A stretch of 64,000 nt of DNA from a phage: sequence record PZ452598.1. One strand, written 5' to 3'. Position numbers and translations under genes: made by a program. A model generated the notes under the pieces. The model did no database searches, was not told the DNA's origin, and saw only the letters and a list, made by a program, of their open reading frames with translations. Of this stretch, positions 5,501-10,059 are shown piece after piece; positions within the stretch are counted from its first letter, which is position 1; each line of letters starts with the position of its first letter.

Positions 5501-6928
5501 TTATTTAAATTGTTCAGTAACGTCTTCAACTACTTCATATTGGCAGGTACGCATTTTAGCATCGTTGTAATCAATCGGAATTGATACTACATCGCGAGGA
5601 TGAACTTTAACTTTTACAACTCGGCTGGTTGAACTACCAAAGTGACGAATATAAGATTTAGAACACACATGCAAACCACGAGAACAAGTTTGTGTATCAT
5701 CGTCATTCACACGAGTACGTGGCATTTTAACTACTTTACCCGGACTGTTATCAAAGGTGTTTGAGTGACAGTCAAAGTAATTGCTGCGAACTACTTTCCA
5801 AGCATAGAAGTAACCATCTTCTGTAATTTCAATATCGTTTGCTACCAAGAAATCAAAGAGTCGAGATACCGCTTTTTGGCTTGGGTTTTCCAACAGATTT
5901 TCCAAGAACGGAAAATAAAATTCAAAGTTTTCGCCTTTTTCCATCGAGTCAAGAATACGATCAACCAAACCAGACCGCAATTCAATATTTTGATAGAACA
6001 AGCTTCCACCTTCAATTCGAACATCGCCGGAAATATATTTTTCAACAGCACGACGAACATTAATTTTTTGTGCCGCTTCTTCCAACTTATCCGCTACAAG
6101 CAGATTAAGAATTTCCTGGAAGTTTGAATGAGTATTAGGAGTTGCGTTATAAGTTACGCCATCAACAGTAATTGAAATGAATTTTTTAGATGCATTCCAA
6201 ATAATGTCAGATTTAGCAACTGGAGCAATAACTGCATCGCTATTAACTTTAACTGTAATATCACCGCTAATAGTCATCAAAATCCGGAAAATAATCATTT
6301 CGCGGTCAAGACCATTAATGATAGCCAAATCTTTGAACGGTCGCATGATATAAGAAACTTCATAAGCAAAGTTTCTAAAGTCTTTTTCTTCAACTGGAAC
6401 TACGATTTCAATACCAGTTTTATCATCTGGACCCATTTCTTTTACGAATGTAGGTTTAATCTGTGGACCATCACCATCCATGTAAGCTACATAACCACGA
6501 ATTTCACCTTTATGATACGAAGTAATACTAAACGTATCAGTATAACTAAACGGAGATTTAGAACCTAAACCAAATCCGCCAATAAAGTCATTAGATTCAG
6601 CTTTAGATGAACTGAAGTATGAATTATACAACCCAGGAGAATTATCATCACCTTGAATATCAAAATCACTCATACCCGGACCAAAATCTCGACAAACAAA
6701 TCGTGGGTCTAAACGTCCAGGAACTTGTATGATAAATTTTTCAGGATTTCCATTAAGTGCATGAGCATCAATCATGTTAGTAATCAATTCACGGACTACT
6801 GCGCGAATCTTGTTTGTATACAAATCAGATGACAGAATTTTAAATACTTTAGGAGATGCTGTGATGCTAAATGCTTTTGATTTAGAACCATTACCAAGAA
6901 TTGTTTCTTTTTCAGTGGTGATAATCAT
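5501..6928 (-). CDS. rII-locus protein (475 aa): rIIA-like N-terminal GHKL ATPase domain; atypical length, possible in-frame rIIA-rIIB fusion
   Basis: GHKL motifs [26 protein letters not shown] in first ~125 aa; sits at the rIIA position next to rIIA.1 and gene 60 but is about 250 aa shorter than canonical rIIA. Confidence 0.7.
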
Positions 6929-6938
6929 AATTTCCTCA

Positions 6939-7142
6939 TTAATTCATATTACGCTTAATAACTTCAGCAACTTCTAGTAGTTCATCTTTAGTTGCGGTGT
7001 CGGATTGAATTTTATCTCTAATATCTTTAAAGCGGGTTTTAAATTCTTCGGCTTCTCCCATATCGAAAAAGCGTTGAATGATTCTATATTCTCGATGAAC
7101 TGCTTTATCAAAAAGTTCTAAATTTACTTTATATGATTTCAT
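6939..7142 (-). CDS. hypothetical protein (67 aa), rIIA.1 position
   Basis: ORF track; between gene 60 and the rII ORF as T4 rIIA.1. Confidence 0.6.
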
Positions 7143-7165
7143 TTCAATATCCTCATTTGCCCAAT

Positions 7166-7199
7166 TAATTATACCACATCCTTGTGGTAAAGTAAACTA
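7166..7199 (-). promoter_or_regulatory. early promoter (-35 GTTTAC 7192-7197, -10 TATAAT 7168-7173) for rIIA.1 and the rII ORF
   Basis: Consensus GTTTAC, 17-nt spacer, G-TATAAT on minus strand. Confidence 0.6.
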
Positions 7200-7729
7200 C
7201 TGGCTCATCCATTCTTTACGAAGGTCAGCATTATCTCCCATGAGCATTTCAAAAAGCTCTTTCCAGTTCTCAGGAAGTTTAACAACATCATATACTGGGT
7301 TTTGAATCATCTCACGATATTCAGATTTTTCCAAAGAGCCAAGTCCCTTAATATAACGGATGCTATGTTTAGGTAGAGCATCTTTGGCACTCTCATATTC
7401 AGCGACTGTATAAAACCATTCTTGTTTTTTACCGACCTGAGCGATGATTACAGGAGTTTTGACAAAGCGAATTCGTCCTTGCTCAAACAATTCTGGCCAA
7501 TTACTAAAAAATCCGAGCAGAGAAGGATAAATAGAACCTAATCCAATAATCTCTTAATTATGAGGTATTTCTATAGATAGCCCGAAGGCTATCCATCGTG
7601 ATCTGCGTCTGTCATAATAGCGACATTCGCATAGTTCATTGAAGAGGATTTAATAGAACGACGAACATTGTTCTGCAATTTATATTTTTTCATATCAACG
7701 CTAGAAGAATCAATTTTTACAAATTTCAT
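7197..7729 (-). CDS. 60: DNA topoisomerase II small subunit gp60 (160 aa) translated across a 50-nt bypassed coding gap
   Basis: Codons 1-46 (7592..7729) end at take-off GGA before UAG; translation resumes at 7541 after landing GGA; 46+114 = 160 aa; sequence matches recalled T4 gene 60. Confidence 0.9.
7542..7591 (-). other. gene 60 translational bypass element (50-nt coding gap)
   Basis: GGA-UAG-CCUUCGGGC hairpin ... landing GGA; explains why the ORF track splits gene 60 into 7589..7780 and 7197..7490. Confidence 0.9.
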
Positions 7730-8528
7730 TATACACCTCATAGAACTTTTCATCAGGAATCCAACCGCGTTTAAATTCATTAAATGCTCGGCCGAATAAT
7801 TTTGAATTCACAGTTATATTATTAACTGATTTCCATTTAGCAACTCCCGTTCGTTTATAATGATCGGGGTCATATTTCGTGACGTACCATTCATATAAAT
7901 TTGGTATTAATTTTACAGCCTCTGGATTTGTCGCTGATTTATTATACCATGGTTTCGCTTTTTCAAGTTCAGCTGCTTTTGCAGTAGCAGCAACAGTATT
8001 TCCAATACCAACTAATTTTTCAGTTTTAATGCGTGGATCATTAACATGAAGACGAAAAACTTCGCCCTTTTCATTTTTAAAGCATGTCATGCCTTTAATT
8101 CCAGGAAGCTTAACACCTTTATTAACACCGCACCATTCCTTTGGGTTAAATGATCCTTTAATTAATAAGGCGCATTTACCCGATTTAATACTTCTCATTA
8201 AAACTTTATCTTTCATAAAGTTTTTTGACCATTCAGATACTGCTCTTTGATGGTAAATTCTAGCAATTTCATATAATTTACTAGAACGTAAATATTTTTC
8301 AGTGTTTAACATTCTATTCATCGCATATGCCATTTCACGATTACGATGAATTTTATATAGTAGAAAATGTGCTAAAAAGTGTTCACGAAAAGTCAGTTTC
8401 ACCAAATTTTCTTTATCATCAGAACCTCCCATTGATCTTGGAAGGATATGATGAATTTCACCCTTAAATTTAGAAACGCGGGTTTTACCCCGCACTATTA
8501 AGTCATTATAGATTTTTTCGTAATTCAC
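7710..8528 (-). CDS. mobA: HNH homing endonuclease-like protein (272 aa) inserted between genes 39 and 60
   Basis: HNH signature HHILPRSMGGSDD...NLV; position as T4 mobA; overlaps both flanking genes. Confidence 0.75.
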   Translation of the reverse strand: MNYEKIYNDLIVRGKTRVSKFKGEIHHILPRSMGGSDDKENLVKLTFREHFLAHFLLYKIHRNREMAYAMNRMLNTEKYLRSSKLYEIARIYHQRAVSEWSKNFMKDKVLMRSIKSGKCALLIKGSFNPKEWCGVNKGVKLPGIKGMTCFKNEKGEVFRLHVNDPRIKTEKLVGIGNTVAATAKAAELEKAKPWYNKSATNPEAVKLIPNLYEWYVTKYDPDHYKRTGVAKWKSVNNITVNSKLFGRAFNEFKRGWIPDEKFYEVYNEICKN

Positions 8529-10059
8529 CTACTGTTATCCATTTACCATTAATCTGTACTTCATCATTTTCATTTACGATAATTGTATCGCCATTTAGCT
8601 CGAAAGTAAACCACTCGCCATCTTCTTTTTCTTCAAACGCTTTTTCACCGAGAACTAGACCAGTGATTGCGCAAATATCAAATAGTTCTTTGTTTTTAAG
8701 CATATCTGCATAAGACATACCCCAACTGTTGAGAACTTTACCACGCAATGGATAACCACCGTGAAGTTCTTTATCACGAACATCAATAAGATATCCGATA
8801 GCCGAATCACCCTCAGTCAAGAAAAGAGTAGTATCAGCATCTTTACCGCAAAGATTCGCTTTGATATGTTTATGAACCTTAGCTTTAGAAGCCTTTTTAG
8901 CTGCTTTAGTTTCTGCTGCTTTTTCTGCCGCCAATTTACGAGCCAAAGCAGCTTCAATAATCGGCATTAGAATTGCTTCATTATTTAGAATAGCACGTGA
9001 AATCTTTTTAGCATCAAGTTGAATATGACTACGAATTTCGCCAAATGGAGAAGTCAAACGCTCTTTAGTTTGAGAATCAAATCGCATGTTTTTCATATCA
9101 CGAACAAACATAACGATAGTCAAACATTCTTTGACACGTGCTTTAGTCACATCAATTTTGAACTTACGTTTGATTTGTGGAATAAGGTCTTCACAAATAT
9201 CATCCATAGCGCAGTCAATGTGATGGCCACCATTCTTAGTATGAATGTTATTGACGTATGTTAATTGACGAAAACCATCCGGTGAACGACCAACCGCAAT
9301 AGAACAATTTTCTTGCTCTTGAACAATAGCATGTTCATCATACTGCCGTGCATATTTCTTAAAATTGCCCTGAACCTTTTTACCATTAAAGGTAAATTGA
9401 ATATCAGGATAAACTACAGCAAGTGTCTGGAGACGATCCAGTGTAATGTCAAGATAAACTTGGGACAGCTCATTAGTTTCAAATGACATAAAATCAGGAA
9501 TGAAAGTAACACGAGTTCCTTTCCATTTTCCAGGAATATCTTCCCATGATTTATTTTCCATGCCATTTGAACAACGAACTACAATATTATTTTGACCGTC
9601 GCCAGTTTCACCGACAAACATCACAGAAAAAATGTTTGTCAAACTAGAACCAACACCGTTCATACCGCCGGTGACGCGTTCTTTATCATCACCAAAGTTA
9701 CCACCTGCTTTTGGAATAGTCCATGCGGCAACAGGACCAGGAATTTCTTCACCGGTAGGTGTTTTAACCATCGCTTGTGGAATACCGCGACCGTTATCTT
9801 CAACTGTTACTTGATTGTTTTTAATAGTAACATTAATTTTATTCGCGAATTTAAACTTAGTACGAATACCTTCATCTACTGAGTTATCGATAATTTCATC
9901 AATAAGCTTAACAAGACCAGGTACATACTGAACACTTTCCCATTTACCAAACATAAAGCGCTCATGCGTTTCATTAGCAGAAGAGCCAATGTACATGCCA
10001 CTACGCTTTTTGATATGTTCAATATCGCTCAGAATTTTAATTTCATTCTTAATCATCAC
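8506..10059 (-). CDS. 39: DNA topoisomerase II large subunit gp39 (GyrB-like ATPase/Toprim)
   Basis: GHKL ATPase motifs (DNGRGIP, GMNGVGSS) and Toprim EGDSA; 516-517 aa as T4 gp39. Confidence 0.95.
   Translation of the reverse strand: MMIKNEIKILSDIEHIKKRSGMYIGSSANETHERFMFGKWESVQYVPGLVKLIDEIIDNSVDEGIRTKFKFANKINVTIKNNQVTVEDNGRGIPQAMVKTPTGEEIPGPVAAWTIPKAGGNFGDDKERVTGGMNGVGSSLTNIFSVMFVGETGDGQNNIVVRCSNGMENKSWEDIPGKWKGTRVTFIPDFMSFETNELSQVYLDITLDRLQTLAVVYPDIQFTFNGKKVQGNFKKYARQYDEHAIVQEQENCSIAVGRSPDGFRQLTYVNNIHTKNGGHHIDCAMDDICEDLIPQIKRKFKIDVTKARVKECLTIVMFVRDMKNMRFDSQTKERLTSPFGEIRSHIQLDAKKISRAILNNEAILMPIIEAALARKLAAEKAAETKAAKKASKAKVHKHIKANLCGKDADTTLFLTEGDSAIGYLIDVRDKELHGGYPLRGKVLNSWGMSYADMLKNKELFDICAITGLVLGEKAFEEKEDGEWFTFELNGDTIIVNENDEVQINGKWITVGELRKNL

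Follow-up and report, generated by a model that had tools for sequence, protein, structure and literature searches.

The gene 60 translational bypass site of bacteriophage T4 and its MobA mobile element, recovered from raw sequence

Programmed ribosomal bypassing has its founding case in gene 60 of bacteriophage T4, the 'hop' of Huang et al. (1988, Science 239:1005), whose elements are matched GGA take-off and landing codons, a UAG stop, a UUCG hairpin, a 50-nt gap, a GAG and a nascent peptide. For the ribosomal mechanism, and for nicking and homing by the associated endonuclease MobA, we rely on earlier experiments (Huang 1988, Weiss 1990, Samatova 2014, Chen 2015, Agirrezabala 2017 and Bonocora 2011), which PMC7026636 and bioRxiv 10.1101/2022.08.31.505936 summarise. 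According to both summaries, the mRNA keeps the gap and ribosomes physically skip it, at ~50% efficiency. At GGA the ribosome is slowed by the nascent peptide together with mRNA structure, a short A-site stem-loop blocks termination and mimics tRNA, EF-G powers take-off and sliding through hydrolysis of GTP, and the distal GGA is reached by ~50–60% of ribosomes (PMC7026636), the anti-Shine-Dalgarno sequence pairing with a GAG that lies 6 nt upstream of the landing codon (bioRxiv 10.1101/2022.08.31.505936). Take-off and landing codons, hairpin and nascent peptide have all been mutated in published work with outcomes that support bypassing, the junction peptide has been sequenced, and single-molecule and cryo-EM data have also been published (PMC7026636, bioRxiv 10.1101/2022.08.31.505936); the in vivo product has been identified by mass spectrometry (bioRxiv 10.1101/2022.08.31.505936), and the 160-aa protein assembles into an active topoisomerase (PMC11461880).

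The idea that the bypass site belongs to a mobile cassette has likewise been published (Bonocora et al. 2011; Manning & Atkins 2022, bioRxiv 10.1101/2022.08.31.505936). Nicking of the empty site by MobA and super-Mendelian inheritance in mixed infection are reported in PMC2988022, and the summaries in PMC7026636 and bioRxiv 10.1101/2022.08.31.505936 attribute empty-site nicking and spread to Bonocora 2011 and describe the gap as shielding the carrier genome from MobA. The mitochondrial 'byp' elements of Magnusiomyces capitatus (Lang et al. 2014 PNAS), for which we relied on the same two summaries, resemble gene 60 in that inserts of 27–55 nt are bypassed between matched codons with a take-off stem-loop. 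As described there, they differ from T4 in having unrelated sequence and dozens of copies per genome, with no associated endonuclease, and the A site holds an unreadable sense codon, whereas T4 has a stop.

The window analysed here is a 64,000-nt stretch of phage DNA (PZ452598.1), in which positions 7150–8600 were 100% identical to at least 12 phage T4 records (T4T HM137666, KJ477684-6, MT984581, OZ209023 and others), and likewise to RB55 and RB59. This identity, together with the annotation of the T4 records, identifies the window as bacteriophage T4 and the site as T4 gene 60. Because the locus is T4 base for base, we claim no novelty for the bypass, which has been known since 1988: there is nothing new at the locus, and we found no difference at the bypass from the published hop. 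The bypass elements, gene 60, mobA and gene 39 all lie on the minus strand. In the T4T annotation they appear as gene 39, mobA (a 272-aa homing endonuclease) and gene 60 as a two-piece join, with a misc_feature over the 50-nt gap labelled 'non-coding translational bypass region'; the annotation of AF158101 is the same, mobA excepted.

A mechanical list of open reading frames breaks this region into products of 63 aa (7780–7589), 97 aa (7490–7197, from TTG) and 272 aa (8528–7710), and one of 517 aa ending at 8506. An earlier note, made from the letters alone, had placed the start of gene 60 at 7780, which is wrong: this is the most upstream in-frame ATG of the mechanical frame, lies inside mobA and is 51 nt too far upstream of the annotated start, ATG 7729, which is preceded by a Shine-Dalgarno sequence, GAGGTG. 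The 46-aa first frame that the note implied was nevertheless right, as scripted extraction from ATG 7729 returned 46 aa ending ...DADHDG. Gene 60, encoding topoisomerase II subunit gp60, therefore occupies 7197–7729 and consists of ORF1 (7729–7592), the 50-nt gap and ORF2 (7541–7197, stop included), the latter reading 114 aa from UUA 7541 with the N-terminus LGSIYPS.... Translation across the gap gave 46 + 114 = 160 aa, the product length that had been proposed. PHROG 7229 'DNA topoisomerase II' covered residues 1–160 of this joined protein (E = 2.4e-81), TOPRIM_C matched at 33.3 bits against a cutoff of 29, and NCBIfam gyrB/parE profiles aligned with residues 20–159. Gene 39 (8506–10056) encodes the 516-aa GyrB-like ATPase and N-terminal Toprim part, with Pfam matches to HATPase_c and DNA_gyraseB, and the domain order of a type IIA topoisomerase B subunit (GyrB/ParE-like: ATPase, transducer, Toprim, C-terminal) was found across gp39 and gp60. 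The joined 160-aa gp60 is identical to residues 517–676 of PDB 8YO3 chain C, the solved T4 topoisomerase.

Scripted extraction also recovered the take-off GGA, the UAG and the landing GGA exactly where they had first been read. The take-off codon (Gly46) lies at 7592–7594 and the UAG directly 3' of it at 7589–7591, forming the first triplet of the gap. Counted from the UAG through the landing GGA (7591–7542), the gap is exactly 50 nt long (TAGCCTTCGGGCTATCTATAGAAATACCTCATAATTAAGAGATTATTGGA), and the landing codon (7542–7544) is its sole GGA, the other GGN triplets being GGG at 7583 and GGC at 7582; decoding restarts at UUA 7541–7539. The locus thus has the matched take-off and landing GGA pair, 50 nt apart, of a T4 gene 60-type bypass. 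Stops occur within the gap in all three frames: UAG at 7591 and 7573 in frame 0, UAA at 7560 in frame 1 and UAA at 7556 in frame 2. These closed frames bear directly on a conventional reading, in which stop-codon readthrough or a +1/−1 frameshift joins the two frames without any long hop. ORF2 does lie in the +2 (= −1) frame relative to ORF1, since 50 mod 3 = 2, and here, as in many cases of +1 frameshifting, the site of the shift is followed by a stop. However, with every frame closed in the gap, neither readthrough nor a single frameshift can join the frames, and neither the unsplit homologs nor the solved protein contain the residues that the gap would encode; this reading is extremely unlikely.

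Around the programmed bypass itself, folding supported the take-off hairpin above all. This 10-bp stem with a UUCG tetraloop (7573–7596; AUGGAUAGCC-UUCG-GGCUAUCUAU) carries the take-off codon in its 5' arm, with CCUUCGGGC inside the stem, and is backed by both folding energy and covariation: it folded at −14.7 kcal/mol, compared with −4.6 ± 2.1 kcal/mol for shuffled sequences (z = −4.86), and none of 200 shuffles did as well. Upstream of it, a 5' stem-loop (7604–7631) was present in both the MFE and the centroid structures, with modest support (−10.8 kcal/mol, z = −2.35; 6 of 200 shuffled sequences folded equally well); its functional role is taken from PMC7026636 and bioRxiv 10.1101/2022.08.31.505936. 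The folding energy of a proposed 3' stem-loop downstream of the landing site, a putative barrier to forward slippage, was indistinguishable from that of shuffles (z = −0.46), and the gap's 3' portion is AU-rich and essentially unstructured by folding. On the landing side, a Shine-Dalgarno-like GAG (7551–7553; AAGAGAUUAUUGGA) stands 6 nt 5' of the landing codon, in the order GAG, AUUAUU, GGA, and its role is described in bioRxiv 10.1101/2022.08.31.505936. The nascent-peptide bypass signal corresponds to ORF1 codons 14–30 (KKYKLQNNVRRSIKSSS; 7640–7690), which have no counterpart in the unsplit genes of RB32 and T6 and are therefore insert-encoded. The whole 46-aa ORF1 peptide is identical to chain C of PDB 5NP6, the nascent peptide on the take-off ribosome.

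An Rfam scan of 7000–8800 against 4227 families at E ≤ 1 found no intron or other relevant RNA family; at this permissive threshold the lone match lay on the opposite strand, scored 21 bits against a gathering score of 86 and is attributable to chance, and a spliced or intron origin of the junction was rejected. The scan bears on the possibility that a tiny intron or editing takes the 50 nt out of the RNA, leaving the ribosome a continuous mRNA to read. The precise insertion within a gene beside a homing endonuclease does recall the arrangement of phage group I introns, and Bonocora et al. reportedly entertained a degenerate intron as the source of the gap. However, a self-splicing intron would need far more than 50 nt, and mRNA that retains the gap is translated, including in the cryo-EM take-off complex PDB 5NP6 (PMC7026636, bioRxiv 10.1101/2022.08.31.505936); we thus regard removal from the RNA as vanishingly improbable.

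Comparison with relatives in which genes 39 and 60 are a single gene, which the earlier note had suggested as a check, supported bypassing of the gap. In RB32 the gene is unsplit and its 605-aa '60plus39' protein carries all topoisomerase B-subunit domains in one chain, and both RB32 and T6 (PDB 8YLU) run continuously over the junction, with neither the 50 nt nor the mobA insertion (MTDADHDGLGSIYPS; ...MTDADHDG-LGSIYPS...); the RB32 protein reads ...ITGLVLGEKAENLNYHNIAIMTDADHDGLGSIYPSLLGFF... at this point. In the DNA alignment, T4 carries exactly 50 nt that RB32 lacks between a GG(A/T) Gly codon and a Leu codon, so that the insertion falls on a codon boundary within the conserved Toprim DxDxDG motif. 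This pattern exceeds chance. A second, separate T4 insertion of ~1 kb follows ...GGTGAAAAAGC and carries mobA; correspondingly, the alignment of gp39 with RB32 breaks after ...GLVLGEKA.

The same comparison weighs on whether gene 60 might be a pseudogene, or might yield two polypeptides, the 46-aa peptide and a separately initiated C-terminal fragment. The mechanical list does split the gene into 63 aa and 97 aa (from TTG 7490), and many GenBank records annotate the pieces separately, listing two or three topoisomerase coding sequences, a 'hypothetical protein' or nothing, which bears out the expectation that naive annotation would misread gene 60. Against this, the gap interrupts the invariant Toprim DxDxDG-LGS motif, and the frame of ORF2 opens only four codons before the landing site. 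It offers no start codon before TTG 7490, at which initiation would lose the conserved LGSIYPSLLGFFSNWPE segment; independent initiation of ORF2 was rejected for want of such a codon. Both halves are 98–100% conserved over 42 phages, with the architecture kept across genera, and the 160-aa protein forms an active topoisomerase (PMC11461880). A decayed or two-product gene has, in our assessment, hardly any probability.

The gene interposed between the two halves of the bypassed topoisomerase is mobA (7710–8528, minus strand), a free-standing HNH homing endonuclease of 272 aa with a GTG (GUG) start, intact by its open reading frame and by the T4T annotation. As first noticed, it lies between genes 39 and 60 and overlaps both, by 23 nt (8506–8528) and 20 nt (7710–7729), respectively. 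MobA matched PHROG 655 'homing endonuclease' (E = 2.2e-57); its Pfam HNH match narrowly missed the gathering score (20.1 against 21.4 bits), and an HH...N motif is visible at residues 24–43. In AF158101, by comparison, mobA is annotated as a pseudogene, as it is for laboratory T4 in bioRxiv 10.1101/2022.08.31.505936, and that sequence differs from the window and from all resequenced T4 by 11 scattered 1-nt insertions and five substitutions, all within 8006–8412. These differences are most simply explained as errors in the old sequence, the 272-aa frame being intact in the window and in every resequenced T4 record.

Together, mobA and the gap are polymorphic among close relatives. Both were present at ≥95% identity in 42 T4-like records, including all 40 mobA records among the matches listed, and ~460 near-identical phages had neither, matching the window only from 7532 on, at 97–99.7% identity. 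Along the gene, T4 and RB32 diverge by 0–3 per 30 nt; at the insertion site the figure rises to 17 of 60 nt, a burst that covers the interval separating the two insertions and the 9 nt directly following the landing codon, beyond which divergence falls to 0. In T4, the stretch that forms the empty site of T2 and RB32 (...ATGACTGATGCTGACCATGATGGTCTAGGAAGC...) is interrupted by the 50-nt gap and carries changes at 17 of 60 positions. Identity between T4 and RB32 breaks at ~8638 and is full again at 7532, so that the MobA/bypass element would extend over 7533–8638 (~1,106 nt, minus strand). In gene order it comprises a 43-aa extension of gp39 (its last 43 codons, 8637–8509, being insert-encoded), mobA, 30 aa unique to the N-terminus of gp60, a stretch of 16 aa that is homologous but diverged, the 50-nt gap and another 9 diverged nt. 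The published element is of matching size, 1097–1106 nt, with 9 extra nt in clade 1 (bioRxiv 10.1101/2022.08.31.505936): as far as its published descriptions extend (Bonocora et al. 2011 PNAS; bioRxiv 10.1101/2022.08.31.505936), the length of ~1,106 nt and the 43-aa gp39 extension are the same, as are the unique and diverged gp60 stretches, the gap at the 3' end and the 9 diverged nt of clade 1.

Diverged cassettes extended the comparison beyond T4. The 118-nt bypass region was found in 54 phage records, 42 at ≥95% identity and ~12 diverged (73–81%), the latter in Proteus, Salmonella (S16 group) and Shewanella phages and one Escherichia Gelderlandvirus; full-length MobA relatives between split topoisomerase genes also occurred in Acinetobacter and Aeromonas phages. 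We compared loci from Proteus PM2/Pm5461, Salmonella S16, Shewanella Thanatos-1, Acinetobacter fHyAci03 and Aeromonas 60AhydR15PP. All shared one gene order (a 39-like gene, an overlapping HNH gene, an ORF1 of ~45 codons, the gap and ORF2), and UAG followed the take-off codon in six of six homologs. Like T4, these other Straboviridae cassettes retain the architecture, the UAG, the UAGCCUUCGGGCUA hairpin core and the ORF1 peptide, whose motif D-M-x-x-Y-x-x-Q-x-x-V/T-R/K-R was found in all six cassette-bearing homologs and is absent from the unsplit gene; PM2 and S16 also keep the (A)GAG(A) motif before landing. Unlike T4, their gaps range over 17–52 nt and their codon pairs are synonymous and not always identical (GGA/GGA, GGG/GGA, GGU/GGC, GGU/GGU, GAU/GAC and GAC/GAC over the compared loci), two homologs take off from an Asp codon one position earlier, and the Aeromonas copy lacks the UUCG hairpin. 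Gap lengths across the compared loci, T4 included, were 50, 51, 48, 52, 43 and 17 nt; those of the homologs include multiples of 3 and the conserved feature is the codon pair, which argues further against frameshifting. In the take-off hairpin, 100% of cells were paired over five genera, four of the ten pairs changed on both sides and the wobble base of the take-off codon covaried with its partner (A-U, G-C, U-A), evidence that, resting on five sequences, is supportive and not statistical proof; sliding the partner strand as a control reduced pairing to 18–44%.

Taken together, the locus is almost certainly the T4 gene 60 programmed translational bypass, with the gap making up the 3' end of a mobile element that carries MobA. 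Closed frames, T4 annotation, colinearity, the conserved logic of the homologs, hairpin covariation and published experiments all favour bypassing of the 50-nt gap. What this analysis establishes is the anatomy of the sequence, its colinearity with unsplit genes and the polymorphism of the cassette; the ribosomal steps, taken from published work, would run as follows. A ribosome would read the 46 codons of ORF1 while residues ~14–30 of the nascent peptide hold the exit tunnel, and would stall once peptidyl-tRNA(Gly) sits on GGA and UAG fills the A site, in which the top of the UUCG hairpin would form and block the release factor. EF-G pseudo-translocation would then allow the peptidyl-tRNA to unpair and the ribosome to slide 50 nt, with a contact between GAG and the anti-Shine-Dalgarno sequence probably aiding re-pairing of the tRNA with GGA 50 nt downstream, before decoding restarts at UUA and yields the 160-aa gp60. 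As to origin, a ~1.1-kb element with MobA very probably entered a single GyrB-like topoisomerase gene and gave rise to genes 39 and 60; the gap and flanking substitutions would destroy MobA's own target and so render the carrier immune. The initial suggestion that an endonuclease/bypass cassette split an ancestral GyrB-like gene is upheld by the colinearity of unsplit genes, the presence/absence polymorphism, the divergence burst and published experiments.

This arrangement shows a selfish homing-endonuclease element that splits an essential gene and is yet tolerated. T4 mobA might be active, because it is intact here and in all resequenced T4 records; that it is fully active and, in addition, that the bypass, or the 46-aa peptide set free by the approximately 50% of ribosomes that do not land, has a function beyond target protection, for example a regulatory one, we consider unlikely as a joint proposition. 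For genome scanning, the site serves as a positive control, in that non-canonical decoding was recognised from raw sequence at a gene that many automatic annotations still misread as two or three genes or none.

Elsewhere in the window, the rII region of this strain carries a 1,699-nt deletion relative to wild-type T4, by which rIIA is fused with rIIB across 7 bp of microhomology (TAATAGT, 6268–6274), a junction absent from public phage records. A culture-collection T4 stock with an r1589-like rIIAB fusion has been described (PMC8594841); we considered the name r1589 for this deletion but did not adopt it, as the published mention gives no coordinates and the junction is in no public phage record. 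A 1-nt deletion 22 nt away (next to 6296) restores the frame, and the resulting rIIA–rIIB fusion is 475 aa long, consisting of rIIA 1–210, eight shifted residues and rIIB 56–312.

The homing endonuclease gene mobA, which lies between genes 39 and 60 (window 7710-8528, minus strand), is an intact open reading frame of 272 amino acids in the window, and likewise in all resequenced T4 records, whereas the older T4 reference record (AF158101/NC_000866) annotates it as a pseudogene. Compared with the window, mobA in that record differs by 11 scattered 1-nt insertions and five substitutions, all confined to 8006-8412, and on the face of the sequences these differences look like legacy sequencing error. 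The mobA of laboratory T4 is still given as pseudogenized in a preprint on the MobA/bypass mobile element (Manning & Atkins, bioRxiv 10.1101/2022.08.31.505936).

Diverged homologs of this cassette in other phages, with variant sites at L004:1541-1620, L005:1547-1620, L006:1523-1600, L007:2133-2200 and L008:2145-2175 of the fetched loci, differ in both hop codons and gap length. Take-off is at GGG and landing at GGA in Proteus phage PM2, where the gap of 51 nt is in frame, and the hop in S16 runs from GGU to GGC over 48 nt. The take-off is an Asp codon one position earlier in both Acinetobacter phage fHyAci03 (GAU to GAC, 43 nt) and Aeromonas phage 60AhydR15PP (GAC to GAC, 17 nt), the latter without the UUCG hairpin; variation of this kind is covered by Manning & Atkins in the same preprint. 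The bypass gene is also misannotated in many deposited phage genomes, including the GenBank records of loci L004-L009, where it is broken into two or three CDSs each labelled 'DNA topoisomerase', called 'hypothetical protein' or left with no feature across the bypass site. It is entered as gp2.4 and gp2.2 in S16 and as TH1_111 and TH1_112 in Thanatos-1, while in PM2 only ORF2 is annotated.

This strain departs from wild type at the rII locus (window 5501-6928, minus strand). A deletion of 1,699 nt, with a 7-bp microhomology (TAATAGT) at its junction (6268-6274), has taken out codons 1-55 of rIIB together with the cistron divide and the 3'-terminal ~70% of rIIA, and alone would leave the sequence out of frame. 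A second, separate lesion 22 nt away, a 1-nt deletion between 6296 and 6297 (A1557 of T4 record HM137666, T4T), restores the frame, so that the two deletions together yield a 475-aa fusion, rIIA(1-210)-8 aa-rIIB(56-312). The junction had no match among the records of the phage collection. The fusion resembles those of r1589-type strains, known from the Crick-Brenner work on the triplet code, and PMC8594841 describes a similar stock.

Among the other topoisomerase genes in the window, gene 52, encoding the third topoisomerase II subunit, differs from its T4T counterpart at one base (C at 1981 versus T at T4T 164462). Gene 39 starts at GTG 10059 (517 aa) in the mechanical ORF list, versus ATG 10056 (516 aa) in T4 records.
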